This document shows, piece after piece, positions 16,427 to 59,224 of a DNA stretch of 64,000 nucleotides (position 1 is the stretch's first letter; the number at the start of each line of letters is the position of its first letter). The notes beneath the pieces were generated by a model, which did no database searches, had not been told where the DNA came from, and saw only the letters and a program-made list of their open reading frames with translations. The translations under genes were made by a program, and so were the position numbers. This DNA comes from an uncultured bacterium (GTDB lineage: Bacteria; Eisenbacteria; RBG-16-71-46; CAIMUX01; WJJG01). The stretch covers positions 69,634 to 133,633 of the forward strand of contig CAZRWW010000001.1 of assembly GCA_964603725.1 (NCBI GenBank). Reading direction: 5' to 3'.

Positions 16427-17233
16427 CTACTGGAAGAGAGCCTTCACCTGACCCCACGTCGAGCTCTCGACCGGCGAGATGCCGCCGCTGCCCTCGAGGA
16501 TGAAGGGCACGCCCTGCGGGGCGCCGCTGCCGGTGTCGATGAGCTGCTGCCACAGGCCGGAGGCGTACTGCAACGCATCACCCGTCGTGGTCTGGCCCAG
16601 GAAGACGATCGGGTTGCCCCAAGGTCCCGAGGCCAGCGTGCCTGTGTGATCGTAGGCGATCCAGTACCAGCCCGCACTGAGGACGAGCGGCGGACTGAAA
16701 GCGCACACGTTGGCCATGATTGGGCGGTTGGTGTCCATCATGGCGGTGTCGAGCACCCGATAGCAGCCCGACCACGCGGTCGTCACCAACCGGTTGGTGA
16801 CCTGATCCCCGTAGATGACCGTGCCGCCGGGAGGCGCGTCATCCAAGATCTCGAAGTACGCGCCCGTGAAGGTGGACGTCGTCGAGGATCCGGTCTGATA
16901 GCCGAAGAACGTGACCTGGTTGATCGTCCAGGTGCAGCCCGTGGGAACCACGAAGTCGTCGGCAAAGCGATAGGGAATCGTGTGGTTGAAGTTGAAGCCG
17001 TAGACCGACATGCCAAGGGCCGTCTGGACCACCGACGCGTTGGCGCCGCCGTAGCCGCCGCCCGGATGCGTGACGAACGGGCCGTTGTCATACAGGACAT
17101 CCCGCGAGGGAGTCCAGACCGGGCCGCCGTTGGGCGCGATGAAGCCCGTGACCGCCTCGGTGTCAACGGCGAGGTCCGCGAACACTGGGGCAGCTAGGAC
17201 TGCCAGCGCGAACAACACTGCAAAGCTGCGCAT
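16427..17233 (-). CDS. Secreted hypothetical protein, paralog 1 of 3, ending in the WGQVKALFQ C-terminal tag
   Basis: Signal peptide MRSFAVLFALAVLAAPVFA. It is about 85% identical to the two upstream paralogs and ends ...SSTWGQVKALFQ*. AGGAGG lies upstream of the ATG. Confidence 0.8.
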   Translation of the reverse strand: MRSFAVLFALAVLAAPVFADLAVDTEAVTGFIAPNGGPVWTPSRDVLYDNGPFVTHPGGGYGGANASVVQTALGMSVYGFNFNHTIPYRFADDFVVPTGCTWTINQVTFFGYQTGSSTTSTFTGAYFEILDDAPPGGTVIYGDQVTNRLVTTAWSGCYRVLDTAMMDTNRPIMANVCAFSPPLVLSAGWYWIAYDHTGTLASGPWGNPIVFLGQTTTGDALQYASGLWQQLIDTGSGAPQGVPFILEGSGGISPVESSTWGQVKALFQ

Positions 17234-17363
17234 CTTCTAACCTCCTGTCGACTTTGCACCGCCGCAGGGAACAGCGACTCCTGGTTTCGCACCAAGCACT
17301 GCGCACCCGCGGCCGCGCACTCACTGAACACAAGGTTTGATGCAGCGGCCGGATCACTCTGCT

Positions 17364-17402
17364 GTGAGACCCTTTCCCATTGCTGGGCGACCTGACTCTC
17401 AC
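17364..17402 (-). promoter_or_regulatory. Conserved inverted-repeat element at the predicted 5' end of the paralog transcripts (copy 1)
   Basis: GTGAGA-N27-TCTCAC with an internal CCCA-GCAA-UGGG (GNRA-capped) hairpin. It starts 5-8 nt after the -10 box. Copies lie at 18562..18600 and 19761..19798. Confidence 0.5.
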
Positions 17403-17404
17403 AT

Positions 17405-17440
17405 CCATAATGATACCGACGACCTGTAGCTGTGTTCAAG
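17405..17440 (-). promoter_or_regulatory. Putative sigma70-like promoter for paralog 1
   Basis: Minus strand TTGAAC-N18-TATCAT. A homologous TTGAAT-N18-TAGGAT lies at 18608..18637, and TTGAAG-N18-TAGAAT at 19806..19835. Confidence 0.45.
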
Positions 17441-17554
17441 CACAATGACAGTGATTCGGGTGTCCCCTCCACGGGGTTCATCCAGCTGACGGGGGAGTGC
17501 CGGAAGCGCGGCCTGATCATCAATTCTGTTTACGGCCGTAACCAGTCACGCGCG

Positions 17555-17591
17555 CCCAAAAGCAGACGCGCGCCCCTCGGGGGCGCGCGTC
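17555..17591 (-). terminator. Intrinsic terminator downstream of paralog 2
   Basis: Perfect 12-bp stem GACGCGCGCCCC/GGGGCGCGCGTC with a 3-4 nt loop. On the minus strand it is followed by UGCUUUUGGG. Confidence 0.75.
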
Positions 17592-17619
17592 CGACGGAAC
17601 TCGGCTTCCGTTCCTCAAG

Positions 17620-18432
17620 CTACTGGAACAGAGCCTTCACCTGACCCCACGTCGAGCTCTCGACCGGCGAGATGCCGCCGCTGCCCTCGAGAATGAAGGG
17701 CACGCCCTGGCCGGTGCCAGTGCCGGTGTCGATGAGCTGATTCCACATCCCCGAGGACGCGGTGTACTGGAGGCCGTCACCCGTCGTCGTCATGCCCAGG
17801 ATCGTGACCGGCGGGCACCAGGGCCCGGAGGCCAGCGTTCCCGTGCAATCGAACGCGATGTAGTACCAGCCGGGTCCCAGGACCAGGGGCGGAGTGACCG
17901 CGCACACGTTCGCCATAACCGGACGGTTGGTGTCCATCATGGCGGTGTCGAGCACGCGGTACATGTTCGCCCAGGCCGTCGTGACCAGGCGGTTGGTCAC
18001 CGTGTCACCCCAGATCACGGCGCCGCCGGGAGGCACGTCATCGAAGATCCGGATGTACGCACCCGTGTAGCTGGATGTCGTCCCGGAGCCTGTCTGATAG
18101 CCGAAGATCGTGACCTGGTTGATCGTCCAGGTGCAGCCCTGGGGAACCACAAAGTCATCGGCCATCGTGTTCGGCAGCGTGTGCTGGAAGCCGAAGCCGT
18201 ACGTCGACAGCCCCAGAGCGGTCTGGAGCACCGACGCGTTGGCGCCGCCGTAGCCGCCACCCGGGTGGGTGACCAGCGGGCCGTTGTCGTACAGGACATC
18301 CCGTGAGGGAGTCCAAATCGGGCCGCCGTTGGGCGCGATGAAGCCCGTGACCGTCTCGGTGTCGGCTTCGAAGTCCGCCAGCACCGGAGCGACCAAGGCT
18401 GCCAGCGCGAACAACACTGCAAAGCTGCGCAT
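17620..18432 (-). CDS. Secreted hypothetical protein, paralog 2 of 3, ending in the WGQVKALFQ tag
   Basis: MRSFAVLFALAALVAPVLA signal. Same family as 16427..17233. Ends ...SSTWGQVKALFQ*. Confidence 0.8.
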   Translation of the reverse strand: MRSFAVLFALAALVAPVLADFEADTETVTGFIAPNGGPIWTPSRDVLYDNGPLVTHPGGGYGGANASVLQTALGLSTYGFGFQHTLPNTMADDFVVPQGCTWTINQVTIFGYQTGSGTTSSYTGAYIRIFDDVPPGGAVIWGDTVTNRLVTTAWANMYRVLDTAMMDTNRPVMANVCAVTPPLVLGPGWYYIAFDCTGTLASGPWCPPVTILGMTTTGDGLQYTASSGMWNQLIDTGTGTGQGVPFILEGSGGISPVESSTWGQVKALFQ

Positions 18433-18561
18433 CTTCTAACCTCCTGTCGACACTTGCACGCTACAGAGATTGTCGCCCTGTGGCTTCCTGCCCAGTGACA
18501 CATCCCCGTAGCCGCGCACTCACTGAACGTAAGGTTGATGCAGCGGCCGGATCACTCTGCT

Positions 18562-18600
18562 GTGAGACCCTTTCCCATTGCTGGGTGACCTGGTTCTCAC
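18562..18600 (-). promoter_or_regulatory. Conserved inverted-repeat 5' element, copy 2
   Basis: Homologous to 17364..17402 with 3 substitutions. Confidence 0.5.
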
Positions 18601-18607
18601 ACCAGCG

Positions 18608-18637
18608 ATCCTAATGGCACTTGAGAGCTGCATTCAA
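18608..18637 (-). promoter_or_regulatory. Putative sigma70-like promoter for paralog 2
   Basis: Minus strand TTGAAT-N18-TAGGAT, at the same relative position as in the other copies. Confidence 0.4.
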
Positions 18638-18751
18638 GCGCCTTTTTGCAGTAACTCGGGAGCCCCCTCCACGGGGTCCATCCGACGGCCGGGAGAGCAC
18701 CGGGAGTGCGGTCTGGTCGTCATTTTGGTTTACGGTTGTAACTAACCGTCC

Positions 18752-18793
18752 TCGCCTAAATGCAGACGCGCACCCCCGAGGGGCGCGCGTCTG
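18752..18793 (-). terminator. Intrinsic terminator downstream of paralog 3
   Basis: Stem CAGACGCGCACCC/GGGCGCGCGTCTG with one mismatch. On the minus strand it is followed by CAUUUAGG. Confidence 0.55.
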
Positions 18794-18817
18794 ATTCACT
18801 CAGCCTCAGTCCCAGGA

Positions 18818-19630
18818 CTACTGGAACAGAGCCTTCACCTGACCCCAGGTCGAGCACTCGACCGGCGAGCAGCCGCCCGTGCCCTCGAGAATGAAGGGCA
18901 CGCCCTGGCCGGTGCCAGTGCCGCTGTCGATGGCCTGATTCCACATGCCCGAGGACGCGGTGTACTGGAGAGCGTCACCCGTCGTCGTGATGCCCAGGAT
19001 CGAGACCGGCGGGCACCAGGGCCCGGAGGACAGCGTTCCCGTGCAATCGAAGGCGATGTAGTACCAGCCCGCGCTCAGAACCAGAGGCGGATCCACGGCG
19101 CACACGTTCGCCATGACCGGACGGTTGGTGTCCATCATGGACGTGTCGAGCACGCGGTACATGTTCGCCCAGGCCGTCGTGACCAGGCGGTTGGTGACCG
19201 TGTCACCCCAGATCACGGCGCCGCCGGGAGGCGCATCGTCGAAGATACGGATGTACGCACCCGTGAAGCTCGACGTCGTCCCGGAGCCGGTCTGGTAACC
19301 GAAGATCGTGACCTGGTTGATGGTCCAGGTCTGGCCCTGGGGAACCACGAAGTCATCGGCCATCGTGTTCGGCAGCGTGTGCTGGAAACCGAAGCCGTAC
19401 AACGAAAGTCCCAGAGCGGTCTGGAGCACCGACGCGTCCGCGCCGCCGTAGCCGCCACCCGGGTGGGTGACCAGCGGGCCGTTGTCGTACAGGACATCCC
19501 GTGAGGGAGTCCAAATCGGGCCGCCGTTGGGCGCGATGAAGCCCGTGACCGTCTCGGTGTCGGCTTCGAAGTCCGCCAGCACCGGAGCGACCAAGGCTGC
19601 CAGCGCGAACAACACTGCAAAGCTGCGCAT
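18818..19630 (-). CDS. Secreted hypothetical protein, paralog 3 of 3, ending in the WGQVKALFQ tag
   Basis: MRSFAVLFALAALVAPVLA signal. Ends ...CSTWGQVKALFQ*. Confidence 0.8.
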   Translation of the reverse strand: MRSFAVLFALAALVAPVLADFEADTETVTGFIAPNGGPIWTPSRDVLYDNGPLVTHPGGGYGGADASVLQTALGLSLYGFGFQHTLPNTMADDFVVPQGQTWTINQVTIFGYQTGSGTTSSFTGAYIRIFDDAPPGGAVIWGDTVTNRLVTTAWANMYRVLDTSMMDTNRPVMANVCAVDPPLVLSAGWYYIAFDCTGTLSSGPWCPPVSILGITTTGDALQYTASSGMWNQAIDSGTGTGQGVPFILEGTGGCSPVECSTWGQVKALFQ

Positions 19631-19760
19631 CTTCTAACCTCCTGTCGACTCCCGCGCCGCCACAGAAACCAACGTCCCCCGGCTTGCTGCCAGGGGGCGC
19701 TTCCCTGCGGCCGCGCACTCACAGAACCACATGTTGTTGCAGCGGCCAGAACACTCTACC

Positions 19761-19798
19761 GTGAGACCCTTCCCATTGCTGGGTGACCTGGCTCTCAC
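19761..19798 (-). promoter_or_regulatory. Conserved inverted-repeat 5' element, copy 3
   Basis: Homologous to 17364..17402 with a 1-nt deletion. Confidence 0.5.
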
Positions 19799-19805
19799 AC
19801 CCAAG

Positions 19806-19835
19806 ATTCTACCTTGTCCCGGGCGCTCTCTTCAA
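19806..19835 (-). promoter_or_regulatory. Putative sigma70-like promoter for paralog 3
   Basis: Minus strand TTGAAG-N18-TAGAAT. Confidence 0.45.
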
Positions 19836-19965
19836 GCCCTTTCTGCGCCTTTGTGGCGTGCCGTAAATGAGTGTTTCAAATTGCCTAAAGTGTTCTTATA
19901 TAATTGGTTGTGTGCCTTGTGGTCACCGGTCGCCACCGCCCGGAACCCTGGTCCGGGGCAGCCAC

Positions 19966-22512: not shown

Positions 22513-22808
22513 GCGGGTAGCTCCTCATACGTCGGCGTGTGCCAGTCGAATCGGACCCCTCGATCCGCGGTCGGGGCCTGGGCGGGTCATCCGGCGCGAA
22601 GGGTCTGCAGGCCCGGAGGGTCCGCCGACGCACGCAGGCTACCCCAATGCAACGGTTCGGTCAAACGCAGCGCGGATCGCCAAGCGGTCTTCACCAGCCC
22701 CCACACTATCGCGGGGCCCTCGCCCGGACGAAGGCGGGCGCCGCGGCACCGGGGCATCGGGGCATCGGGGCACCGGGCGGGATTCGAGCAACGGCGGGAG
22801 GGCTGACC

Positions 22809-24347: not shown

Positions 24348-24350
24348 CCG

Positions 24351-25874: not shown

Positions 25875-26206
25875 GCGTTCCTCTCAAGCTGGTCGCCCGG
25901 GCAGGCGCCCGGGGACTCTTCCCGGCCGCGTCCCACCGGGCCGGCGCCCGGGATTCCCCTGGGCCGGCGCTGGGGCGGACGCGACACAACGCCCGGTCTG
26001 ACTATCGGCATCGGGGAGGGCCATCATTCGAAGCCGCACCCGATCTTGATTCGCCCGGAGCGCCGGCCGGAATGCCGGCAGCAAACCCGCCAGAGGGTGC
26101 CGGGCGGACCGGCGCTGTGCTAGGTTGCAGCTGGCCGGCACCGCCGGCCGGGAGCTCGGGTGGCGCTCCCAACGCAGAGCGGCGGCAACTGGTTGGCGAG
26201 ATCAGC

Positions 26207-27428
26207 GATGAGAAGCTCACGGTGGCCGGAATCGGCCGGACGACTGATCGACCGGGCCGTGAACCTGCTCGATCAGGAAGGCCTCCGCATCCTGGACGAG
26301 GACGCCCGGCTGCTGCTGGACGCGAGCGGCGCCGTCCGCCAGGCGCGCCAGGAGCGCTTGCGCCTGCGCCCGGGGTTCGTGCGCAGATCTCTGCTGGACC
26401 TGCCCGCCGCTTTCAGCCTCTACGATCGCGATGGGAGGCGGGCGTGCTCTGTGGCGGGCGGATTCGTCCCCGGCCGGCTGATGACCCTGCACGCCACACT
26501 CACCAGCGCCCGGGCCCTCGGGGCCGGCCAGACACCGGAGTCGAGCGCGCCCCACCCCGGAGCGCGGCTGCCGGGCAGCGTCGCGGAAGGCATCGGCGCC
26601 TTCGATCTGGTGGGCTGTGCCCCTCCGCTGGAGGAGACGAACGCGACCCACGGCTACTTGCACCGGCTCTTCACGAATCTGATCGCGGCCCCGCGGCCGC
26701 AGCTCATGCGCCCGAGCGCGGCGGGCGTCCTGGACGGCCTGGGGCGCTTCCTGGCCAGGCTCCGCGGCTCCCAGGAAGCGGCCGAGGCCAGGCCGTACGT
26801 CATCTGCGAAGCTGTCGCCGACGGCCCGCTGTCCTGGGGGGAAGCGGCGGCCCGCGAGATCGTGCAGGCCGCCCGCCAGGGCGTGCCGGTGGCGCCTGTC
26901 GCCGGCCCGCCGGCGGAGGAGGAGGAACTCGATCGGTGGGTGATCGAGGCCACTGCCGGTCTCCTGGGCGCCCTGGTGCTGAACCGCTGCGGGCGTCGCG
27001 GCGCGCCCGTCCTCTGGGGGGTGCCCCTGCCGCAGCTCTTCAGCCGTCGGCCGGAGACGGTGGTGGCCCTGCGACTCCTGCTGGAGGCCGGCCGCGAGAT
27101 CGGCGTTCCCACCCTCGCCACGGTCGTCCCGGCGGATGATGATCGGGCCGGTCCGAGCCCCGGCGAGCTTGCCCCGCTCTGGGCGGCGCAGGCGGCCGCC
27201 CAGGGCGCCGCCATCGTGGCCTGGGGCGGCCTCGGTGACGAGGGCCGTACGCTCGACCTGGGGCGGCTGGCCCATCACGCGCGTCAGGTCCCCGCCCTGC
27301 GCCAGGTCCTCGGTGATGCCGCCCCATGGTCCCCGCCGTCACCCCGCGACCCGGGCCCGGTCGACCCCGCGCTCCTGCAAGCGCTGGCGGACGTCGTGCG
27401 CGACGCATCGTTGGAGACACGAGATTGA
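26207..27428 (+). CDS. MttB-superfamily (trimethylamine/glycine-betaine methyltransferase-like) protein, tentative
   Basis: The N-terminus RLIDRAVNLLDQEGLRILDEDARLLLDASGAVRQ...RLRPGFVRRSL resembles the MttB N-terminal region. There is no corrinoid partner nearby. Its stop overlaps the next gene's TTG start. Confidence 0.4.
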
Positions 27429-36039: not shown

Positions 36040-36063
36040 AACCGATCGCCCGGGAGCGCCGCG

Positions 36064-47358: not shown

Positions 47359-47363
47359 CGGAT

Positions 47364-48567: not shown

Positions 48568-49344
48568 ATGCGACGCGCTCTGACGATCATCGCAACACTC
48601 GTGGTCTTCTCCACCCTCGCCCACGGCGATCCGCATATCCTGGCCAGCGGGGCGTTGATCACGCACTCGATGAGCTATGGGCGTTACCCACCGCAATGCT
48701 ACACCTACTATCAGTACAATCCGATCTCGAGCTGCAACGAACAGAACGCCACCATGTCTTGGGGTAGGCACGCGTGGTTCGTCATCGCAGCGTTCGACGA
48801 GGAGAAGCAGTGGTGCGGCGTCGAGTTCGGGTTCAACGATTTCAACCCCGAGCCCTTCGACTTCTGGGGGGCGGACCCGTGCTTCCCGGTGGGCGGACTG
48901 GAGATTCCATCCGCAAACTGGCCGGGCCCGCTCCAGGGCACAGCCTTCGTGACGACCGGCACGCCGTGGACGGGCAACTTCGTGCCGGTCTACTGCTTCT
49001 ACGGGTATGCCTACGACTACTACGGATCCACGATCCTGCAGCTCACGCCCAATCCGGCGAGCGGTTTCGGCGGCTTCGCCAACTGCACGACGCCGCCGGA
49101 GTTGTACGAGGCCGCCCTGGGTGGGATGGGGGTCAACTGCCCGGGCGTGGAGGTGTGCTGGGGCTGGCAGGAGTTCGTCTGCTGCGTGGGCACCGAATGC
49201 GTGCTGGTGCACGGCCAGGAGGAGTGCACGGCCCTGGGCGGCATCTTCCACGCCGAGTGGGATAGCTGCGGGCCCCCGAATCCGTGCGACGTGACGCCGG
49301 CCATCCGGTCGAGCTGGGGACGCGTCAAGGCGCTGTACCGTTGA
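48568..49344 (+). CDS. Secreted Cys-rich hypothetical protein ending in the SSWGRVKALYR C-terminal tag
   Basis: Signal peptide MRRALTIIATLVVFSTLAHG. More than 14 Cys residues. Its mature domain is unrelated to the tandem paralogs but it carries the same C-terminal motif. Confidence 0.7.
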   Translation: MRRALTIIATLVVFSTLAHGDPHILASGALITHSMSYGRYPPQCYTYYQYNPISSCNEQNATMSWGRHAWFVIAAFDEEKQWCGVEFGFNDFNPEPFDFWGADPCFPVGGLEIPSANWPGPLQGTAFVTTGTPWTGNFVPVYCFYGYAYDYYGSTILQLTPNPASGFGGFANCTTPPELYEAALGGMGVNCPGVEVCWGWQEFVCCVGTECVLVHGQEECTALGGIFHAEWDSCGPPNPCDVTPAIRSSWGRVKALYR

Positions 49345-49434: not shown

Positions 49435-51180
49435 ATGCTGCCCGCAGTGGCAAGCACTGACCGGCGAAACACGCCATCGCTATGGCTCCTGGGCGCGCTC
49501 CTGCTGGCCGCTGCCACTGCGCGGTTGTTTGCCCTGGGCCATGAGGGCCTCTGGTGCGACGAGGCCTACACGGCCTTTACGGTGCGCCTGCCGGTGGGCG
49601 AGATGATCGCCAGGCTCCTGCGCACCGACGATGCTCCTCCGCTCTTCTATCTACTCGTGAAGCTGAGCGCCTGGATCGCCGGCGATTCGGAGGCCGCCCT
49701 GCGAGCCGTGTCGGCGTTGGCAGGCATCGCCGTGGTGGCGCTCCTGCTGTGGCGGGCCTATCGGCGCGGCACTCGGGAAGAGGCCTGGAGCGCGCTCTTC
49801 GTGGCCGTCGCCGCCTTCGGCATCTTTCACGCTCGGCAGGCGCGCTCGTACGGGCTCTTGATCCTGCTGGCCATGGCATTCGTGCTGAGCGCCAGGGATC
49901 TTCTGCTCGGACGGCGGCGCACGGGGCCCTGTCTGGCGATCTGCGGCACGCTGCTGTGGCTGACCCACCATGCGGCGGTCGCGCTCGTCCTGTCCAGCTT
50001 GCCCCTGTGGTGGCTGGGCGCGCGCGAACGACCGCGCCTGCGCGCGTGGGTGCTCTGGCACGCCGCGCCGCTCGCGCTCTGGGCCGGCTACTGGATCGTC
50101 GCGCGGGCGCAGCTCGAGATCCACGCGGCGCTCAATCCCTGGACCACGGAGTACTGGCAGGCGCACCCCCTCGCGCTCGCGCCGCTTTTCTCGCTGGGCG
50201 CGTTCATCCCCGGGGGCTTGCCTCCGACCCAGCTCAGCACGGGCTTCGCCTTGCTGGGGCGCCTCTCGCCCCACTGGAGCGTCCTGTCGATGTCGCTGGC
50301 GTCCGTGTGCGTCCTGGCCGCCGCTCGGCGCGCCCGGCGCCGGCCGGCCGGCGCGCAGCCGGCTGCAGGCCGCGCGGTCGCGCTGGAGGCCTCGTTCGCG
50401 CTGGAGGCCTCGTTCGCGCTGCTGCCGCTCCTGGCCCTGCTCGCGGCGTCGCTCATCGCCAACCCGGTCTACGTCCTCACGCGAACCGACGTCATCGCCT
50501 TCCCCGCCTTTGCGCTCCTGATGGGGCGCGGGCTGGCCGCGTTGCCCCGCCGCGCGGCGGCCGGCATCGCGCTCTTCTGGCTCGCGCTCTCCCTGGTCGC
50601 GCTGGCGCCCACCTATGGCCTGGGCGACCCGGCCCTGGCGAAGGGCAACGACCGCCGCGTGGCGCGCGCGCTGGCCGCTGGCGACCTGGCCCGCGACGAT
50701 TGGGTCGTTCACACGTACATGACCGCCCCGTCCATCGAGTACTACCTGGGTCGCATGGGCGCCGATCACCACCCGGCCTGGTTCCCCCGGATAGCCGGCC
50801 GCAACATCGCATCGGCCTGGCCCGCGCTCCCCGATTCGCTCGAAGCCTATCTCGGTGAGGCGCTGGAGCTGCGCCGCGCGATGGAGCTCGCCCTGCCCGA
50901 GGACGGCGCTGTCTGGATCTTCAGCCCGGTCGAGACGCGCACTGCCGAGGCCATCCAGCGGGGGGACGGGCCGCAGGCGCTGACGGTCGAGCAGCTCGGC
51001 TACCCGGTCACCGCGCTCGTCTACACCCTCGTGGGCACGCGGCCCCTCGAGCCGGTGGCCATCTACACCCAGGATTGGGTATCGGGACTGCAAGCCCTGC
51101 TGCGGATCCCGCGCGGGAGCTGGCTGCCGCTCGAGGAGCTGCCGCGAATCGAGGGCGGCGCCCCAGACGCCTCGCAGTAG
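49435..51180 (+). CDS. GT-C fold glycosyltransferase of the ArnT/PMT (GT39/GT83-like) family
   Basis: About 12 TM helices. The first-loop motif is GLWCDEAYTAFTV. A large C-terminal soluble domain follows. Confidence 0.7.
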   Translation: MLPAVASTDRRNTPSLWLLGALLLAAATARLFALGHEGLWCDEAYTAFTVRLPVGEMIARLLRTDDAPPLFYLLVKLSAWIAGDSEAALRAVSALAGIAVVALLLWRAYRRGTREEAWSALFVAVAAFGIFHARQARSYGLLILLAMAFVLSARDLLLGRRRTGPCLAICGTLLWLTHHAAVALVLSSLPLWWLGARERPRLRAWVLWHAAPLALWAGYWIVARAQLEIHAALNPWTTEYWQAHPLALAPLFSLGAFIPGGLPPTQLSTGFALLGRLSPHWSVLSMSLASVCVLAAARRARRRPAGAQPAAGRAVALEASFALEASFALLPLLALLAASLIANPVYVLTRTDVIAFPAFALLMGRGLAALPRRAAAGIALFWLALSLVALAPTYGLGDPALAKGNDRRVARALAAGDLARDDWVVHTYMTAPSIEYYLGRMGADHHPAWFPRIAGRNIASAWPALPDSLEAYLGEALELRRAMELALPEDGAVWIFSPVETRTAEAIQRGDGPQALTVEQLGYPVTALVYTLVGTRPLEPVAIYTQDWVSGLQALLRIPRGSWLPLEELPRIEGGAPDASQ

Positions 51181-51306
51181 TGGCCCAACGCCCTTCTGGC
51201 GATTGCCACCGGGCTCCGCGCCCCGGAACAATGCCCCGTGCCGCCGACCGTAGTTGACGCTATATTTCACGAGGTCGAATTCACCCCCCTGAGACAGGCG
51301 CCATCC

Positions 51307-53700
51307 ATGGAGCCCATGGGAGGGAGACGCACGTCGAGAAGGATCGCAGCGGGGCTCGTCCTGGCGGCTCTGGCGGCACCTGTCGCGGGAGCGCGCATCA
51401 CTGCATCCGCCGGCGCCGAGCCCGCGCCGCAGATCTATGCCGTGCGCCCCCCCGATCTCTTCTACCACACCGCCGGGGCCCTGCGGCTCATGGTCACCAA
51501 CATGGGGATTCTCGGGAACCCGCAGCTCGGGGTAGACAGCTACGGCGCGGGCTGGCAAGGCCGGGAGTACCTGCGCACGGCCGAGCTCTGGGTCGGCGCC
51601 GTGGCGGGCGACAACCTCGAGCACGTGTCCACGGGCCTCGAGTTCCGACCCAGCCTCGACCCGCGGGATACGATCTACCTGACCCACGAGGGCGCCCCGG
51701 GCGGCAACCGGATCGGTTTCGCGAACGATTGCGGGGACGACGACCGCGATGGGCGCCGCGACGAGGACTTTCTCAACGGCAAGGACGACGACCTCGATGG
51801 GCGCATCGACGAGGACTTCGAGGCAATCGGCCAGGAGATGTTCAGCTGCGAGTACTGGGATGACAGCGAGGCATCCCTGGATGCGATGCCCGACCACCGG
51901 CCCCTGCACTTGAAGGTCCGCCAGCGCACGTTCGCCTGGTCCGAGGAGCGCTATGACTCCTGCATCGGGATCGACCTGGAGATCGTCAATGAGGGTTTCG
52001 AGGCCCTGCGCGATGTCTACGTGGGCTGGCTCGTCGACGCCGATGTGGGACGCAGCGATGCGCTGGGCTACTGGCGCGACGACCTGGGCCTGGCGGCCCG
52101 CGTGGACACGACCTTCCTGGACGAAGCGATCACCTACCGGTGCGAGGACCGCTGGCATCAGTGGCACGACTGCCGGCCGCGGTCGCTCGGTTTCGATGTG
52201 GCCTGCATTCGCGACGCCAAGGGCGCCGAGGGCGGCCAGTACGGCGATGACGAGGAAGGCGAGGCCGATGGCTGGCTCGGCTTCATCCTGCTGGACCACA
52301 CCACCGACGAGAAGGGCGAGCGGGCGCCGGCCGGCGTGCGGCTCTGCACCCGCCGGTTCATGACGCAGCGCTGGAGCTACGAGCTCCTGGATCTCACCCG
52401 CTACCAGTGGCTGGCTTCCCACCAGCTTCTGCCCGACACGACGGCCTTGCCTTCGGACTACGCGCTGCTGGCGGTCATCGGACCGTTCCCGGAGCTGCTG
52501 CCCGGCGAGGTGATCAACTCGCAGTGGATGCTGGTCGTCGGGCCCGGGTGGTCGGGGCTGCGGGAAGAGGCCTTCTTCGCCATGCGCGTCTATGAGGGCG
52601 AGTGGCGCGACACCGATCTCGACCCGGAAACGGGCAGCGAGGGGCGCGAGCGGTGCCTGCAGGTGGAGGCCGACGGCCTGCCGATCGTCTGGCGCGATCC
52701 GTGCGTGCAACTGGGGGACATCAAGAAGGTCAGGGTCACTGACTGCTCGAACCCCGACAACTGGGTCGATGATGACTGCAATTGCTGTACGCCCGTGCAA
52801 GAGCCGCGACTCAACGAATGGGGCCGCGACACCATCGTGAAATGGGTCGGCCGCGTGGGCCCGCCTCCGCCGAGCACGAGCACGCTCGATCCTCAGCGGC
52901 AGATTCAGTTGGTCGGCGATCGCAGGGTGATCGTCGAGTGGGACAACGCGCCGGAGCTCGTCTACATCCCGTCGGATAGCGGCGCGGTCTTCTCCGGCTA
53001 CCGGATCTGGCGCGTCGAGGGATGGACGCGCCCGTTCGGCTCCCCGGGTCCCGACGCGACTCAGTGGGAACGCATCGCCGACCTGGCGATCGATCCGGTG
53101 GGCACTCAGCTCCGACTGCAGGAGTACACCAATCCCGTGGCCCGCGTCCTGGAGTACGTGCCGTCGGCGGTCGATCCCGACGTACGGCTGCCGCTCTATG
53201 AGGTTGGACGATACTTCTATGAGGACGTCTCGGGGCTCAAGAACGGCATGCTCTACTTCTACGACGTCACCAGTTACGCGACCTGGATTGATGATCACGG
53301 CCGCCGGCGTGAGATCGGCCAGCCGCCGGCGGCGCTGGAGGGCGAGGCCGTGCGACCGCGCTGCGAGGCGATCGCCGGCTCGGGCTGGAAGGACCAGGTG
53401 GCCGTCGTCCCCAACCCCTATCGCGGGGGGGCCGAATGGGACCTCCATCCCAACGCGGCCGATCCCCTGGGAACGCACATCAGCTTCATCGGCCTCCCGG
53501 ATCGGGAATGCGACATACGCATCTACACGCTCGCCGGCGACCTGGTGCAGACCCTGCGCCATACGCCTGTCAACGGACGAGGCGAGGCTTCGTGGGACCT
53601 GATCTCGCGCAATCACCAGCAGATCGTCAGCGGGATCTATCTCTATGCGGTGACGTGCGGTGGGGAGACCGTCGTCGGCCGGTTCACGGTCGTGCTCTGA
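51307..53700 (+). CDS. Large secreted protein with a type-A T9SS C-terminal sorting domain
   Basis: Signal peptide MEPMGGRRTSRRIAAGLVLAALAAPVAGA. An acidic DxDxDG-rich calcium-binding-like region. The C-terminal roughly 90 aa reads VVPNPYRGG...DIRIYTLAGDLVQTLRH...ASWDLISRNHQQIVSGIYLYAVTCGGETVVGRFTVVL, a canonical T9SS CTD pattern. The track ORF starts at 51238. Confidence 0.85.
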   Translation: MEPMGGRRTSRRIAAGLVLAALAAPVAGARITASAGAEPAPQIYAVRPPDLFYHTAGALRLMVTNMGILGNPQLGVDSYGAGWQGREYLRTAELWVGAVAGDNLEHVSTGLEFRPSLDPRDTIYLTHEGAPGGNRIGFANDCGDDDRDGRRDEDFLNGKDDDLDGRIDEDFEAIGQEMFSCEYWDDSEASLDAMPDHRPLHLKVRQRTFAWSEERYDSCIGIDLEIVNEGFEALRDVYVGWLVDADVGRSDALGYWRDDLGLAARVDTTFLDEAITYRCEDRWHQWHDCRPRSLGFDVACIRDAKGAEGGQYGDDEEGEADGWLGFILLDHTTDEKGERAPAGVRLCTRRFMTQRWSYELLDLTRYQWLASHQLLPDTTALPSDYALLAVIGPFPELLPGEVINSQWMLVVGPGWSGLREEAFFAMRVYEGEWRDTDLDPETGSEGRERCLQVEADGLPIVWRDPCVQLGDIKKVRVTDCSNPDNWVDDDCNCCTPVQEPRLNEWGRDTIVKWVGRVGPPPPSTSTLDPQRQIQLVGDRRVIVEWDNAPELVYIPSDSGAVFSGYRIWRVEGWTRPFGSPGPDATQWERIADLAIDPVGTQLRLQEYTNPVARVLEYVPSAVDPDVRLPLYEVGRYFYEDVSGLKNGMLYFYDVTSYATWIDDHGRRREIGQPPAALEGEAVRPRCEAIAGSGWKDQVAVVPNPYRGGAEWDLHPNAADPLGTHISFIGLPDRECDIRIYTLAGDLVQTLRHTPVNGRGEASWDLISRNHQQIVSGIYLYAVTCGGETVVGRFTVVL

Positions 53701-53796
53701 TCCGCCGTGAAACCCTCCGCGGGCACAACGGCGTAGGTCGACGCGAGCGTTCTCACCCCCCTGAGAGCCTCTACCCCCGAGAGGCCGCGAGTCGCC

Positions 53797-56034
53797 ATGA
53801 ACGAGCGCATGCACAGCAACGGCTCGAGCGCCGCGTCCGCGCGGGCGGACCAGGCGGCCCCCTTCCGGCTGGGCGAATGGGCCGTCCACCCGGCGCTGAA
53901 TCGCGTCGCCCTGGGAGACACCTGGGTCCAGGTCGAGCCGCGCGTGATGCACGTTCTGGCGTGCCTGGCCAGCCGGCCCGGGGAGGTCTTCTCGCGCGAG
54001 AGACTGCTGGCGATCGTCTGGAACGACCTGGTGGTCTGCGAGGAGGCGCTCACGCGGACGATCTCGGAGCTGCGCCGCATCTTCCACGACGATCCGCGCA
54101 CGCCGCGGTTCATCGAGACCATCCGCAAGGGCGGGTATCGCCTGATCGCCCCCGTCTCCCCGCTGATCGAGCCGGCGCCACCGGCGCGCGGCAACCTGCC
54201 GCCGGTCGAGCCGGGGCAGTCGCGGCCCGCGGGCAGCGGTGCCCCGCTCGCCGCTCGCGAGCTCATCCCGGACGCATCGGCCCCGGCCCGCGATGTCCGA
54301 CGCCGGCCGCCCGCGCGCCTGAGGATGGTTGTCTACGCGGTCATGGTCGTGCTGACCGTAGCGGCGGGAACCCTCGCCGCCCAGCGGCTGCGCTCTCGGA
54401 CCGCGGGGCCGAGCACGCTGGACGGCGTGCCCTTCACGACCTATCCGGGAGCCGAACGATTCCCGGCGCTGTCGCCCGACGGCACGCAGGTAGCCTTCGC
54501 CTGGAACGGCGGCCAGGACGGCCGGTTTTCGATCTACGTCAAGCAGAGCAACACCGAATCGCCGCTGCGCCTCACGAACGGCGCCACAGATGACAGCCAT
54601 CCGGCCTGGTCCCCGGACGGCAGCGCCATTGCCTTCATCCGCCGCGACACCCAGGGCTACGGCATCTACACCGTGCCGTCGATCGGCGGCGTGCCGCGGC
54701 GGTTGATCCCGCTCGCCGCGGAGCCGCGCGGCCTGGACTGGTCGCCGGACGGCGCCTGGGTCGCCGTCGGGGACGCGCCCGCGGCGGGGCGGGCCGCGGG
54801 GATCACGCTGCTCGCACTGGAGTCTCTGGAAACTCGCCGAATCACCGACCCGCCGGCGCACTTCGGCGGCGATGGGCTGCCGGCCTTCTCACCCGACGGA
54901 CGGTCGCTCGCCTTCTCGCGCGTCGACGCCGCCGGCATGAGTCGCTTGTACATCGTCGCGACCGGCGGGGGCGAGCCGAGGCCCTTGACGCCCGCGCAGG
55001 AGGCGATCAGCGGTGTCGACTGGACGGCGGACGGCCGCGCGATCATCTTCGCGGCGACGTCGAACGGCAGCTGCACACTGGCGCGTCTGGCCCTCCGGTC
55101 CGGCACCCTCACGCGCTTGATCACCAGGGGCGCGGAGGCGCGGTGCCCGTCGCTCTCGGCAGCGAGCGGCCGGCTGGTCTACGAGGAGGCGTCGCAGCGC
55201 GCGGACGTCTACCGGGTCGAGCTCGATGCGGCGCGCCGCCCCGGCCCGCCGCGGCCGCTGATCGCATCGACGCGGGCGGACGCGGACGCGCACTTCTCGC
55301 CGGACGGGTCCCGGCTGGCTTTCCTGTCCGATCGCGCCGGCTCGCGCGAGGTGTGGATCTGTGACGCCGGCGGCGGCAATGCGCGCCAGCTCACCCGCCT
55401 GGGCGGACCGTGCATGAGCACGCCGTGCTGGTCGCCGGATGGCCGGCGGCTGGCCTTCTCCGCCGCCGACTCCGGCGGATGCTTCATGATCCACGTGGTC
55501 GAGGCCGAGGGAGGGCAGCCCCATCGCCTTCCCGGCGCCGGCGGCCATGAGATCGCCTCGCTCTGGTCGCGCGACGGGCAGTGGATCTACTTCGACGCGG
55601 AGCGCGCGGGCGGCTGGGACATCCGGCGCGTGCGCCCGGACGGCCGCGACGCGGCGACCGTCGTGGCCGGGGGGCGCCGCGTCATGGCGCAATCGCCCGA
55701 CGGCGAGCTGATTTACCACCTCGCCCCTGGCGACGGCGGCATTCAGTGCTCGACGCCCGGTGGCGAGCCGCGCGGGACCCTCGTGGACGGCGCGTCGGCG
55801 CAGCCGTGGCGAGCCATTGCGCTCGGCCCCGGCGGCGCCTACTTCACGCGGCCGAGCGGCGCCGGTTGTCTGCTCGGGTTCTGTGATTTCCAAACCGGAC
55901 GAATGGACTCGCTCCTGCAGTTGCCCCCGCTCTGTGGCGCGCACCTCTCGCTCTCGCCGGATGGCCGGACGCTCATCTACGACCAGATCGATCAGGTGGC
56001 CGGCGACCTGATGCTGGTCGAGGGCCTTCGCTGA
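53797..56034 (+). CDS. CadC/ToxR-like membrane-bound transcriptional regulator (OmpR-type winged helix) with a periplasmic TolB-like beta-propeller
   Basis: FRLGEWAVHPALNRVALGDTWVQVEPRVMHVLACLASRPGEVFSRERLL...TIRKGGYRLIA, then a TM helix, then repeats SPDGTQVAFAW, WSPDGSAIAFI and WSPDGAWVAV. Confidence 0.85.
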   Translation: MNERMHSNGSSAASARADQAAPFRLGEWAVHPALNRVALGDTWVQVEPRVMHVLACLASRPGEVFSRERLLAIVWNDLVVCEEALTRTISELRRIFHDDPRTPRFIETIRKGGYRLIAPVSPLIEPAPPARGNLPPVEPGQSRPAGSGAPLAARELIPDASAPARDVRRRPPARLRMVVYAVMVVLTVAAGTLAAQRLRSRTAGPSTLDGVPFTTYPGAERFPALSPDGTQVAFAWNGGQDGRFSIYVKQSNTESPLRLTNGATDDSHPAWSPDGSAIAFIRRDTQGYGIYTVPSIGGVPRRLIPLAAEPRGLDWSPDGAWVAVGDAPAAGRAAGITLLALESLETRRITDPPAHFGGDGLPAFSPDGRSLAFSRVDAAGMSRLYIVATGGGEPRPLTPAQEAISGVDWTADGRAIIFAATSNGSCTLARLALRSGTLTRLITRGAEARCPSLSAASGRLVYEEASQRADVYRVELDAARRPGPPRPLIASTRADADAHFSPDGSRLAFLSDRAGSREVWICDAGGGNARQLTRLGGPCMSTPCWSPDGRRLAFSAADSGGCFMIHVVEAEGGQPHRLPGAGGHEIASLWSRDGQWIYFDAERAGGWDIRRVRPDGRDAATVVAGGRRVMAQSPDGELIYHLAPGDGGIQCSTPGGEPRGTLVDGASAQPWRAIALGPGGAYFTRPSGAGCLLGFCDFQTGRMDSLLQLPPLCGAHLSLSPDGRTLIYDQIDQVAGDLMLVEGLR

Positions 56035-56109
56035 GCAGGGATGCCCCGCGGCGCGACGATGCGGCGCTCGCCGGCCGGGCATGCCCGCGGCGCGAGCGCC
56101 GCGCGGGAT

Positions 56110-58263
56110 TCAGGGCTTGCGATCGGGCAGCAGCCCCAGCTCCGCCAGAGCCGCGCGCGCGAGCGCGTGGCGCCGGCTCATGACCTGCTCGAAGGTCGGG
56201 CTGTCAAAGTTGAGCGCGTAGAAGTAGACCTCCGCATCACGCTCCACGTAGCCCACGAGCCACCCGACGAAGCTTCCATCCGGCTGGCGGCCCGTCCCGC
56301 TCTTCCCGCTCAGCCGATAGCCCTCCCCCTCCTCGAGCACGATCAGGCGCTTGACGAGGTCGGTGGCGGCCGGGGAGGCGCCGAGTTGACCGCGATAGAA
56401 CCGCTCGAGGAAGCGGATCTGCTCGTCAGCCGAGATGGTCAGGGAGTTGGCCAGCCAGAACCGGTCGACCCCGCCCGAGATGTCCCGATTGCCGTAATCG
56501 TAGCGCTCGAGATAGCGCGGATAGGCATCGTCTCCGATGCGCCGCGCGATCTCCTGGTAGAACCAGACGACCGAGTGGCGCATGGCCGAGGCGAGGCCCT
56601 GGTCCGCGTCCCAGCCCTCCGGCCATCCGGGCTGCCGCGGGTCACGCCGGGGGTCCCAGGCCAGGCGGAACTCTTCGCCCGTGATCACGCCGGTCTCAAG
56701 ACCGATGAGCGTGTTGGGGATCTTGAACGTCGAGCAGGGCGAGAAGCGCCGGGCGCAGCGCTCCGGATCATGGCGCACGTGGCGATGGCGCTGAGGATCA
56801 TAGAGGGCGAATGCGATCCAGGCGCTGTCGGGCACGGCGCCGGGTTGTCCGGAAGCAGTGTCGGGCGCCCCCCCGAGGGTGGCGGAAACCGTATCAGGCG
56901 CCTCGCCGAGCCGGTCGGGGGCCGCGGCGGGAGCCGCGCCGGGAGCCGCGCCGGGGGCCGCGGCGGGAGCCGCGCCGGGAGCCGCGCCGGGAGCCGCGCC
57001 GATGTCGGCGAAGGCCGCCGCGAGCCGGTCGTGGAGCGCCCCCTGCCCCGAGATGATCCAGTCGCGCGTGCCGTCGCCGTAAGCGCGGTAGAAGTCGTTG
57101 CCCAGGACGAACAGACACTGGTCGCGCAACTCGGGCTGCGCAAAGGTGACATTGAGCGGGATGACGCGCCCGCCGAAGGTGGGCTCGATCCAGTCGTGGC
57201 GCGTGTGGCCCACGATCACGCGCGACGCGTCGTAGCGAGCCAGCACCTCGCTCAGCTCAGCCGCCGTGATCCGCTGGTACCGCTTCGCATGGACGAAGTA
57301 GCCCCGGTACCAGAGGGGCCCCAGGGACCCGAACAGCAGCTCGGCCGCTTCGTCTGCGGGGCAAGCCCCCTTCTCCAGGCAGCGGCGAACGATGGCGTTG
57401 AGGTCGTCGATGGTCTGGCCCGATCGCGCCACCTCGGGCGACAGCCCGCCGTGCACGCAGAGCAGATCGCCCAGACGGATGACCGCCGGCCACGCGCGCA
57501 CCCATCGCCCCAGCTCGGTGCGCGGACCGAAGAGCTCTTCGTAGGCGATTCCCAGCGCATCGCACAGGTAGAGCTGCGCGCAGGCCACGTAGCGCCGGTC
57601 ACCGTTCAGGGCCCTGTGCTCGTGGTTGCCCAGCAGGCAGTGGACCCGGCCGCCGGCCGGCGCGGCCTGCTGTTCGAGCTTGCGGATCAGCCACAGGCAG
57701 TCCGTCACGCCGGCGCCGCGGTCGAAGACGTCGCCGCAGAAGACGAGGTGTCCGCGGCCGAACGCCCAGTCGCCCCGCTCGTCGATGATGCCGCAGCTGC
57801 GCAAGAGCGCGACCGCACTGCCGTACTCGCCGTGCAGGTCGCCCACAAAGCAGATCGACTCGGGCCGGGCCTGCACTGCCTCGGGCACCGGGAGCGAGGC
57901 GCCGATCAGGAACCTGCGCTCGTCCCCGGCGAATCCCCGCAGCTCGAAGGGAACCCGCCCGGCGTCCGCCGACTCGGCGGCCCGCCCGGGATCCACGGCG
58001 AGCGTCTGCTCGATGATCTCATCGGCGCCGCGCTGCGAATCGCGGACGAGGTAGATCAGCCGCACGCGGCGATCGTCGTCCCAGAAGACGTGCGGTCCGT
58101 CGCGCAGGCTGGCAATGCTGTCGGCGGGCGGGATGCGGCCGAAGCAGCCCGGGTCGCGGGCCTGGGTGGTCCCACGTTCCTGAGCGCCGGCAGTCGGCCA
58201 GCCGGCGCAGATGACCAGCGTCAGCGCGGACGTCCAGGCCGCGCGCCTGCTTGATGCGATCAT
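56110..58263 (-). CDS. Periplasmic fusion protein: N-terminal calcineurin-like metallophosphoesterase plus C-terminal class D beta-lactamase/BlaR-sensor-like transpeptidase-fold domain
   Basis: Signal MIASSRRAAWTSALTLVICAGWPTAGA. Phosphoesterase motifs GDLHG, GDVFDRG and GNHE. A linker of (APGAA)n comes from a 15-bp DNA repeat at about 56925..57000. The OXA-like domain has STFK, YGN and KSGTG motifs. Confidence 0.8.
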   Translation of the reverse strand: MIASSRRAAWTSALTLVICAGWPTAGAQERGTTQARDPGCFGRIPPADSIASLRDGPHVFWDDDRRVRLIYLVRDSQRGADEIIEQTLAVDPGRAAESADAGRVPFELRGFAGDERRFLIGASLPVPEAVQARPESICFVGDLHGEYGSAVALLRSCGIIDERGDWAFGRGHLVFCGDVFDRGAGVTDCLWLIRKLEQQAAPAGGRVHCLLGNHEHRALNGDRRYVACAQLYLCDALGIAYEELFGPRTELGRWVRAWPAVIRLGDLLCVHGGLSPEVARSGQTIDDLNAIVRRCLEKGACPADEAAELLFGSLGPLWYRGYFVHAKRYQRITAAELSEVLARYDASRVIVGHTRHDWIEPTFGGRVIPLNVTFAQPELRDQCLFVLGNDFYRAYGDGTRDWIISGQGALHDRLAAAFADIGAAPGAAPGAAPAAAPGAAPGAAPAAAPDRLGEAPDTVSATLGGAPDTASGQPGAVPDSAWIAFALYDPQRHRHVRHDPERCARRFSPCSTFKIPNTLIGLETGVITGEEFRLAWDPRRDPRQPGWPEGWDADQGLASAMRHSVVWFYQEIARRIGDDAYPRYLERYDYGNRDISGGVDRFWLANSLTISADEQIRFLERFYRGQLGASPAATDLVKRLIVLEEGEGYRLSGKSGTGRQPDGSFVGWLVGYVERDAEVYFYALNFDSPTFEQVMSRRHALARAALAELGLLPDRKP

Positions 58264-58432
58264 GGCTCCTCCGGCGGCGCGGGCTGAGGTTGGAGCCGCA
58301 CCGTGCCGGAGAGCTTAGCGAAGGCTCCCACTGGGCGCAGGAGAAAAGATGGCGCCCCGCCTGGTAGCCAAGCGGGGCGCCTCAGATCCCAGCCGCGTGG
58401 ACCTCCGACGCGCGGCCCGGGCTACTGAGAGA

Positions 58433-59224
58433 CTACTCGAAGAACGCCTTGATCTGACCCCACGTGGTGGGATCGGCCGGGCTGGGAGGACCCGCCAGCA
58501 GCAGGCACTCCACCAAGCGACTGAACCCCGCGTTCGTGTAGGGACAGATCGCGGCCGGATTCGGATGGCCGAACTCCACCAGGCAGGCCCCGTGACCGTA
58601 GTCGGCGATGAACACGCAGGGCAGGCCGGTCACCGGACCTTGCCCGACGATGTGCCACTCGGCGCCCATTTGCAGCACGGTGTCGCCTGCAAACGGCAGG
58701 TCCGCGCCGGTGATGCCCTGGGCAATGCAGTGCGTTGGATCGACGATCACCGTGGGACAGTCGGCGCCGTTGTACGCGTTGTTGACCATCAAGTCATAGG
58801 GCGCCCAGGTGATGTCGGCGTTGTTCCCGGGCATCTGATAGGGATTCGGCTGGCCGATCCACAGCTTGCCGCCGCCGTTGACGTAGGCGTGGTAGTCCTG
58901 CGCCAGCCCGTCCAGCGTGTAGTAGTAGGCGGGCGCGGCGTGCGACACCGGCAGAATCACGATGTCGTACTGGCTCAAGACGCTGAGGTTCGAGGTCGCG
59001 GGAATGATCGTCGAGCCGTAGCCAACGGCCGTCAGGCGGTCCTGGAAGTTCGAGATGCCGCCGCCGGCGTCGACGATGGCGACCGTGGCGTCGGCGTACG
59101 ACCACGGGCTGGGCACGACGCTGTCGTCGAGCCCATCCTGGTTGACGTCCTCAGCCAGAGCAGGCGCGGCCTGCCAGCCGAGACACAGACAGACGAGTAA
59201 CACGGGTGCGAACACGGATCTCAT
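58433..59224 (-). CDS. Secreted hypothetical protein ending in the TTWGQIKAFFE C-terminal tag
   Basis: Signal MRSVFAPVLLVCLCLGWQAAPALA. GGGAGGAG lies upstream of the ATG. Its mature domain is unrelated to the other tag-bearing proteins. The track ORF extends to 59338. Confidence 0.7.
   Translation of the reverse strand: MRSVFAPVLLVCLCLGWQAAPALAEDVNQDGLDDSVVPSPWSYADATVAIVDAGGGISNFQDRLTAVGYGSTIIPATSNLSVLSQYDIVILPVSHAAPAYYYTLDGLAQDYHAYVNGGGKLWIGQPNPYQMPGNNADITWAPYDLMVNNAYNGADCPTVIVDPTHCIAQGITGADLPFAGDTVLQMGAEWHIVGQGPVTGLPCVFIADYGHGACLVEFGHPNPAAICPYTNAGFSRLVECLLLAGPPSPADPTTWGQIKAFFE

Follow-up and report, generated by a model that had tools for sequence, protein, structure and literature searches.

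A short conserved C-terminal tail on unrelated signal-peptide proteins of an uncultured Eisenbacteria bacterium: a candidate envelope sorting signal

Herein we describe a short C-terminal peptide (the tag, or tail) that ends five signal-peptide proteins encoded in a 64,000-nucleotide stretch (the window) of contig CAZRWW010000001.1 from an uncultured Eisenbacteria bacterium. The tail is strictly C-terminal and modular, it is widespread in the Fibrobacterota–Chlorobiota–Bacteroidota (FCB) group, and it is not specific to the source genome. We are inclined to think, with a probability of roughly 0.55, that it is a short linear C-terminal signal for envelope sorting or anchoring, read by a component distinct from the known systems. 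An initial annotation of the window had already interpreted the tail as the mark of a dedicated sorting or attachment system, and such an interpretation gains support from homologous cargo proteins, on which the tail is exchanged with recognised sorting signals.

The motif [ST][ST]WG[QR][VI]KA[LF][FY]x followed by a stop codon ends exactly five open reading frames (ORFs) of the window. These are the five that the initial annotation had pointed out, and ORF translations, regular-expression searches and shuffled sequences all bear out its list:

16427..17233, minus strand: A1 (family A, paralogue 1), 268 aa; signal peptide, beta-sandwich domain and tagged tail
17620..18432, minus strand: A2 (family A, paralogue 2), 270 aa; sequence with which homologues were searched and the AlphaFold2 (AF2) model was built
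18818..19630, minus strand: A3 (family A, paralogue 3), 270 aa
48568..49344, plus strand: protein B (family B), 258 aa; signal peptide, Cys-rich domain and tagged tail
58433..59224, minus strand: protein C (family C), 263 aa; signal peptide, domain without assignment and tagged tail
16427..16477, minus strand: tag of A1, SPVESSTWGQVKALFQ followed by TAG
17620..17670, minus strand: tag of A2, SPVESSTWGQVKALFQ followed by TAG
18818..18868, minus strand: tag of A3, SPVECSTWGQVKALFQ followed by TAG
49294..49344, plus strand: tag of B, TPAIRSSWGRVKALYR followed by TGA
58433..58483, minus strand: tag of C, SPADPTTWGQIKAFFE followed by TAG
18376..18432, minus strand: predicted Sec signal peptide of A2, MRSFAVLFALAALVAPVLA, with cleavage before D placed by eye
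17177-17233 and 19574-19630, minus strand: equivalent segments of A1 and A3, predicted signal peptides
48568..48627, plus strand: predicted signal peptide of B, MRRALTIIATLVVFSTLAHG, with cleavage before D, from sequence
59153..59224, minus strand: predicted signal peptide of C, MRSVFAPVLLVCLCLGWQAAPALA, with cleavage before E, from sequence and homologue N-termini

An N-terminal signal peptide can be seen by eye in all five proteins, and a Pro/Ser/Thr/Gly linker stands ahead of each tail, as the initial annotation had noted for Pro and Ser. The start of protein C was set at the ATG at 59224, which has the support of homologues, and not at the upstream TTG at 59338. A six-frame search with the expression WG.[VIL]K..[FYW] returned six window sites, five of them exactly one residue before a stop, and a relaxed expression brought no additional tagged ORF from the window. 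The degenerate DNA pattern matched the window five times, whereas 100 shuffles that preserve dinucleotides gave 0.00 matches on average. All five ORFs have a coding-type composition, with a GC content at third codon positions of 0.85-0.88 in a window of 70% GC.

How many independent cases the window holds depends on family A. Its copies are mutually 77-93% identical (A1-A2 78%, A2-A3 93%) and form a tandem triplication with spacers of ~385 bp; because the three are paralogues, the window offers three independent cases of the tail and not five. Stripped of signal peptides and tails, families A, B and C showed no similarity to each other in BLASTP (best E 0.8). The assertion that the mature parts represent three unrelated folds therefore stands at the level of sequence, while at the level of fold a model covers family A only. 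Such unrelated upstream domains rule out the end of one homologous C-terminal domain, and similarity does not extend upstream of the tail, which starts right after the folded domain in the alignments of family A and of the FN3-tail protein described below. The tail codons also differ between the families (GGT CAG GTG / GGA CGC GTC / GGT CAG ATC), so the similarity exists at the peptide level, and a shared DNA repeat is ruled out too. That the tail has no function of its own, being due to chance, to a shared DNA element or to common descent of one domain, could draw on the recent paralogy of three of the five copies; set against the shuffles, the codons, the unrelated domains and over 220 additional C-terminal cases from other organisms, it is extremely improbable.

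These additional cases come from two scans. In GTDB, with one genome per species, the pattern WCN-TGG-GGN-MRN-RTN-AAR-GCN-NTN-TWY-NNN-TRR, whose information content leads one to expect ~9 chance matches, was found at least 120 times. Among the 120 matches listed, 55 end in TAA, 38 in TAG and 27 in TGA, while TGG, which the pattern also permits, ends none; since all three stop codons are used, a recoded stop or read-through at the tail is ruled out. A taxon is named in the title of 93 of the 120 listed matches, and all of these fall within the FCB group: Ignavibacteria/Melioribacter, Rhodothermaceae, other Bacteroidota, Kryptonia, Zixibacteria, Eisenbacteria, Latescibacteria, Krumholzibacteriia, KSB1, Calditrichia, Delongbacteria, Marinimicrobia and Gemmatimonadota. 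Among the carriers are the cultured Roseithermus sacchariphilus and Rosettibacter primus, as well as a metagenome-assembled genome (MAG) assigned to the cultured species Melioribacter roseus. Such a taxon range points to a lineage-specific reader of the tail.

The metagenome scan, run without a stop codon in the pattern, yielded at least 124 matches. Of the 124 listed, 101 lie within 10 residues of the C-terminus, and the aromatic residue is followed by one residue in 79 of them, by two in 17 and by three to ten in 5. The other 23 are not C-terminal, including seven that run off the end of the locus; wherever the protein is visible, it is translation initiation factor IF-2 with an internal ..TWGRVKAMF.. 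(e.g. loci L125, L131, L133, L144, L150 and L156). We judge the IF-2 match to be a coincidence, and any motif-based census of the tag must exclude this protein. Tagged genes often stand in tandem among the metagenome loci, as they do in the window. In IMG/VR viral contigs the pattern matched only twice (L244 6391-6423; L245 214-246); both products are ordinary tagged signal-peptide proteins, ending in ..EETWGRVKALYR and ..RTTWGSIKAFYR, and the two contigs may be misbinned bacterial DNA or prophage cargo.

Were the tail common in cytoplasmic proteins, its interpretation as a sorting signal would suffer. The opposite was found: 186 of 198 complete tagged ORFs (~94%) were positive in a signal-peptide test, compared with 224 of 908 controls (~25%), an enrichment for which the initial annotation had proposed to test. 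The test is crude, and several of the 12 negative tagged proteins do have a signal peptide by eye. The consensus could be extended to [ST]-P-[VTA]-E-x-[ST]-[ST]-W-[Gas]-x-[IVL]-K-[AST]-[LIM]-[FY]-[RQKE]-COOH.

Homologous cargo provides further support. The 372 homologues of family A align through a conserved ..PFIIEG and then split into alternative C-termini. Some end in the tag or its close variants STWAQIKTLYR, STWSQLKALYR and ETWATIKSVF. P0071 carries a PEP-CTERM signal instead (TIGR02595, 22.3 bits against a cut-off of 16; also PEPxxWA-CTERM), P0025 has an IPTL-CTERM-like tail with a sub-threshold IPTL_CTERM score, and transmembrane (TM) anchors of Chloroflexi type end some others. A second short tail, VVPVELQSFDVE-COOH, is a true protein end followed by a terminator-like element. 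This second tail, VVPVELQSF[DS]VE-COOH, has no TM segment and ends about half of the 120 listed family A homologues (P0012, P0017, P0030, P0068 and others). At L243 3739-3774 (Holophagae contig PQAJ01000063), it is followed by TAG and then by a hairpin and a T-run. NCBIfam gave no match on it, although NCBI names P0068 "PEP-CTERM sorting domain-containing". The VELQSF tail resembles the first beta-strand (I..FTA.S) of the Ignavibacteria FN3-tail domain, and it may be another undescribed tag.

Family B tells a similar story. Among 1.84 billion representatives it has 574 relatives; 65 of the best 150 end in the tag, and many others of these 150 end in a domain of ~70 residues, WDGRD..G..V..GVYF.RL....RR.VLVR. 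This domain matches Pfam FlgD_ig in all eight cases tested (24.5-42 bits, six of them above the 27-bit cut-off), and one of the eight also weakly matches the CHU_C type IX secretion system (T9SS) signal. It is of one T9SS-like kind with the C-terminal domain of window ORF 62471-63982. The Cys-rich module that stands before the tag in protein B (C..GG.WHPEW.SC.PNPC) occurs in as many as 15 copies in very large relatives, of up to 4145 aa (P0221-P0370, e.g. P0223, P0235 and P0302), and either the tag or further domains come right after it in many relatives. For family C, 18 homologues were found, 17 of them full length at 42-85% identity; all 17 keep the terminal ..K..F/Y.x tail, and 16 of them the Trp. 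The choice-of-anchor pattern, in which one mature domain occurs with two or more C-terminal sorting signals, is thus seen in families A and B, and the tail is, from these alignments, positionally interchangeable with PEP-CTERM and T9SS-like domains. The closest named homologues of families A and C are from "Candidatus Eisenbacteria". Homologues of families A and C and of the FN3-tail protein that carry a source name are all "hypothetical protein", except for one family A homologue labelled PEP-CTERM.

Across the listed genome loci, the cargo of the tail splits into one conserved small FN3-like protein and a set of diverse domains. The former, the FN3-tail protein, is ~135-150 aa long and consists of a signal peptide, one FN3-like domain and the ending ..VKRTWGSIKAMFR. 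It accounts for 74 of the 120 listed loci (e.g. L006 1376-1811 of Roseithermus sacchariphilus CP030158; L054; L061), is carried by Ignavibacteria, Rhodothermia, Kryptonia, KSB1, Calditrichia and others, and its gene usually lies in the conserved order MATE, FN3-tail gene, SpoIID, Maf. An alignment of 44 homologues (41-74% identity) has 16 invariant columns, of which 8 fall within the last ten residues (T-W-G-S-I-K-A-x-F), and the tail is, on this alignment, the most conserved segment of the protein. Together with the persistence of the tail in family C down to 42% identity, these columns show that the tail is under strong purifying selection.

The diverse cargo is found in Eisenbacteria, Latescibacteria, Zixibacteria, Krumholzibacteria and other MAGs. 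It comprises right-handed beta-helix proteins, small beta-sandwiches and many domains without assignment, and one tagged Eisenbacteria protein carries the choice_anch_X domain NF041940. In families A and C the tag extends upstream in the sequence logo, P-[ST]-P-[VT]-E-x-[ST]-T-W-[Gas]-x-[IV]-K-[AST]-[L]-[FY]-x, which the family B tails fit by eye. A signal-peptide beta-sandwich protein of ~140 aa, of Zixibacteria type, ends in ..L[DE]TWG[KR]IKALF[RK] (L008, L012, L031, L045, L060, L062, L071, L113 and L114), and its gene adjoins a Rex-like repressor and a partner-switching module of RsbV/RsbW/PP2C type.

Structural models place the tail outside the cargo fold. In the AF2 model of A2 (mean predicted local distance difference test, pLDDT, 88), a confident beta-sandwich is accompanied by a terminal segment (residues 256-270) with pLDDT below 50, in which only WGQVKAL forms a short helix; the N-terminal signal region is modelled as a helix over residues 3-18, also with low pLDDT. 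The model of the FN3-tail protein (pLDDT 82) shows the FN3 fold followed by 16 last residues with pLDDT 54-59. In both models the tail is an exposed, flexible appendage that contains at most a helix of 3-7 residues and no strands. A PDB fold search with the family A model gave no significant match, the hits being similar to carbohydrate-binding modules or jelly rolls at E>=0.02. With the FN3-tail model, Foldseek confirmed the FN3 fold and returned generic FN3 and Ig domains; these are not specific to T9SS, and the idea that this protein is a free-standing T9SS C-terminal domain was rejected.

The short helix over WGQVKAL brings to mind an autonomous anchor of PBP5 type, in which the tail would bind membrane lipid or lipopolysaccharide as an interfacial helix, with neither a receptor nor processing involved. 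Trp, Lys, Tyr/Phe and a terminal Arg are indeed a typical interfacial composition, and PBP5-type anchors resemble the tag in that they, too, are short C-terminal helices of signal-peptide proteins that lack a TM segment. However, the anchors of E. coli PBP5/DacA type have ~18-20 residues, are strongly amphipathic and are poorly conserved in sequence, whereas the tag has ~10 residues, which is short for stable anchoring, and is sequence-invariant and weakly amphipathic: its helical hydrophobic moment is 0.30-0.46, and 27% of shuffles equal or exceed it. The near-invariance of T-W-G-S-I-K-A-x-F across phyla goes beyond what an anchor of this kind needs, and the fixed distance to the C-terminus (one residue in 79 of the 101 listed metagenome matches) suggests recognition of the free carboxylate. 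We consider the autonomous anchor quite unlikely.

An exposed, flexible peptide at a fixed distance from the carboxylate might also be a degron or regulatory tail, through which a periplasmic PDZ-domain protease (Prc/CtpA/DegS-like) would control turnover or signalling and not localisation. The family A genes do adjoin a divergently oriented pair encoding an extracytoplasmic function (ECF) sigma factor (14355-15212) and a zf-HC2/TPR anti-sigma factor (15326-16270), an arrangement that suggests ECF-controlled expression of family A. Nevertheless, such a neighbourhood is not recurrent, PDZ proteases prefer a hydrophobic last residue while the tag ends in R, Q, K or E, and one would not expect a degron to be replaced, in homologous cargo, by PEP-CTERM or a T9SS-like domain. 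Such a role is highly improbable.

The opinion that the tail is not a described tag has withstood all searches for a name. Whole tagged proteins of the window matched nothing in Pfam-A and NCBIfam 20.0, and the tail peptides nothing in NCBIfam at E<=10; two sub-threshold Pfam matches of tail peptides at E<=10 (DUF3772, 11.4 bits; PM2_P3, 16.7 bits) were read as chance. No PDB chain contains the tail by sequence. Literature searches on motif strings, on choice-of-anchor, on sorting in the carrier candidate phyla, on XrtF and on CTERM found nothing matching the tail. On these searches, the tail is unnamed and corresponds to no described signal.

Around the tagged genes, the window encodes the ECF sigma/anti-sigma pair, a CHAT protein, a polytopic GT-C/Agl23-like membrane protein, a PD40 regulator and a PBP-like protein. 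The CHAT protein (11315-14446) has 1043 aa and also contains TPR repeats. The membrane protein (581 aa, 49435-51180), lying directly downstream of gene B, has no Pfam match and resembles Agl23/GT-C-type proteins only weakly and below threshold (TIGR03663, 27 bits); judging from this resemblance, it could be a glycosyltransferase acting on envelope proteins, and its neighbourhood is not recurrent. Elsewhere in the window, a choice-of-anchor D domain protein with arylsulfotransferase-like repeats is encoded at 61059-62459 (NF012200, 51.9 bits), and an FKBP at 9228-9947 matches BamJ, a Bacteroidota family of accessories of the beta-barrel assembly machinery (NF053689, 103.6 bits against a cut-off of 100).

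Keeping all this in mind, we propose the following scenario. Tagged proteins would be exported by Sec, with removal of the N-terminal signal peptide. The cargo would then fold, leaving the Pro/Ser/Thr linker and the terminal peptide of ~10 residues flexible and exposed, as in the models. A conserved, FCB-restricted component of the periplasm or outer membrane would bind this peptide, and the bound cargo would be routed or tethered to its destination in the envelope or at the surface; the tag might be removed at the P-[VT]-E head. Such a route would be parallel and alternative to that of the T9SS-type C-terminal domain of the same organisms. More tentatively, and with rather more doubt than trust, one may suppose that tagged proteins are the substrates of a separate pathway, neither T9SS nor exosortase-dependent, by which the FCB superphylum alone sorts proteins in its envelope or attaches them there. 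Its ancestral or housekeeping client would then be the FN3-tail protein, universally conserved in Ignavibacteria and Rhodothermia, while Eisenbacteria, Latescibacteria, Zixibacteria and Krumholzibacteria would have expanded the tag to many secreted proteins.

Several points weigh against reading the tail as a sorting or anchoring signal. Localisation, cleavage and binding are all things that we infer from sequence, and the exchange with sorting signals shows positional equivalence, not equivalent function. No candidate for a receptor or processing enzyme recurs beside tagged genes in 46 diverse loci and the window, where repeat-rich secreted proteins are the only recurring neighbours; clustering of neighbours at the 74 FN3-tail loci gave lineage synteny only (MATE, SpoIID, Maf). 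In general sorting systems the reader is usually not encoded beside its clients. With the strict pattern, Ignavibacteria genomes mostly yield a single conserved protein each, and a specific contact between two proteins would account for this as well as general sorting would. Furthermore, the Ignavibacteria version, ..VKRTWGSIKAMFR, lacks the P-x-E head, so that any cleavage there cannot be universal.

If the tag does mark a separate pathway of this kind, a free peptide of ~10 residues, with neither a membrane anchor nor a folded domain, would constitute a third architectural class of C-terminal signal. Such signals are the main handle for predicting displayed or secreted bacterial proteins, and LPXTG, PEP-CTERM and the T9SS domain have repeatedly led to the machines reading them. 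The carriers, among which the tag is common, belong to large, mostly uncultured phyla important in soils, sediments and bioreactors; recognition of the tag would improve prediction of their secretomes and surface proteomes and would provide a search image for the missing receptor or processing enzyme. The tag is directly testable, since cultured carriers exist, and its alternation with T9SS-like domains on the same cargo raises the question of what separates the two routes.

Finally, we would like to compare the tag with known C-terminal signals, starting with PEP-CTERM and its PEPxxWA variety (TIGR02595, NF035944). Like the tag, they occupy the extreme C-terminus of signal-peptide proteins with unrelated cargo, and on family A homologues they even start at the same junction. 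The head of the tag, P-[VT]-E-x-[ST]-[ST]-W-G, resembles theirs (P..E..[ST]-W-[GA]), and this likeness calls for a caveat: the tag may not be evolutionarily independent of the PEP-CTERM class. One might go further and regard it as a truncated PEP-CTERM, i.e., a PEPxxWA-type signal that has lost its TM helix and Arg cluster and undergoes exosortase-like processing, for example by the orphan XrtF class of Bacteroidota. The two heads do align (..P-V-E-S-S-T-W-G.. and ..P-E-P-A-T-W-A..) with equal spacing from Glu to Trp, and in family A both come after ..PFIIEG. XrtF is not known to have PEP-CTERM substrates, and a literature search on its targets found nothing.

However, the Pro-Glu-Pro motif itself is absent from the tag, where SPVESS, SPVECS, TPAIRSS and SPADPTT before the W keep P..E or P alone. 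The TM helix and the Arg/Lys cluster, thought to be needed for presentation to exosortase, are lacking as well: only ~10 residues come after the head, the stop follows the W after 9-10 residues, and just one Q, R or E closes the chain. PEP-CTERM hidden Markov models (HMMs) found nothing in the whole proteins at E<=1 or in the tail peptides at E<=10, while the control P0071 scored. Neither the Ignavibacteria nor the Zixibacteria version has the P-x-E head, and there is no exosortase among the 16 window proteins scanned or among the recurrent neighbours. The tag is confined, among named carriers, to the FCB group, whereas PEP-CTERM is found mainly in Proteobacteria, Acidobacteria, Cyanobacteria and others. 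Taken together, a truncated PEP-CTERM is very unlikely.

T9SS C-terminal domains are similar to the tag in a different way: they seem to occur in the same phyla and likewise end Sec-exported, unrelated cargo. They also alternate with the tag on family B cargo, in the form of FlgD_ig, and coexist with it in the window. Two window proteins are of interest here. A papain-like peptidase (62471-63982) matches FlgD_ig with 36.9 bits and TIGR04183 weakly, with 14.5 bits, and a secreted protein (51238-53700) matches TIGR04183 weakly, with 14.7 bits; each also has a sub-threshold match to the PorU/PorZ C-terminal domain. Such matches confirm that T9SS-type signals and the short tag coexist in the source organism.

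It is tempting to suppose, then, that the tag is a miniature T9SS signal, read by the PorV shuttle or the Sov translocon through mimicry of the last strand (the motif E region). Its taxon range appears to coincide with that of T9SS-type C-terminal domains, and both ends are hydrophobic before a basic or polar last residue (..RRVVLVR and ..VKALYR). Moreover, the last 22 residues of a T9SS C-terminal domain are reported to have been enough to get a reporter secreted, and an invariant Lys/Arg is described for motif E (PMC11969387). Even so, the T9SS signal is described as a folded beta-sandwich of 40-100 aa with motifs B, D and E, and the shortest known domains, with 43-55 aa, have three beta-strands and motifs B and D (PMC11969387). 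The tag, a peptide of 10-16 residues, has neither B nor D, and it is modelled with low pLDDT and without strands. Neither the five proteins nor their tails show HMM similarity to TIGR04183, PF18962, FlgD_ig or CHU_C, in agreement with the initial view that the tail is distinct from the T9SS domain of the two other window proteins. It would also be hard to explain why one genome keeps both signals on paralogous cargo if they were equivalent. We therefore regard a miniature T9SS signal as unlikely.

The remaining classes can be treated briefly. IPTL-CTERM, LPXTG and other tripartite sortase-type signals are C-terminal and modular, as is the tag, and an IPTL-like tail is exchanged with it on family A. 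These signals combine a motif with a TM helix and a basic cluster, while the tag has neither helix nor cluster; an LPXTG-like motif, a TM helix and a basic tail are all three absent from the five proteins, which upholds the early remark that no hydrophobic anchor follows the motif and that the tail is unlike PEP-CTERM and LPXTG. An outer-membrane beta-signal does not match either: in 79 of the 101 listed C-terminal metagenome matches the aromatic residue is penultimate and not last, and the family A cargo is modelled as a soluble beta-sandwich and not as a beta-barrel. Overall, because their defining features were tested for and found absent, we conclude that the tag lies outside the PEP-CTERM, T9SS-domain, LPXTG and beta-signal classes, and that in its architecture it nevertheless behaves as these signals do.

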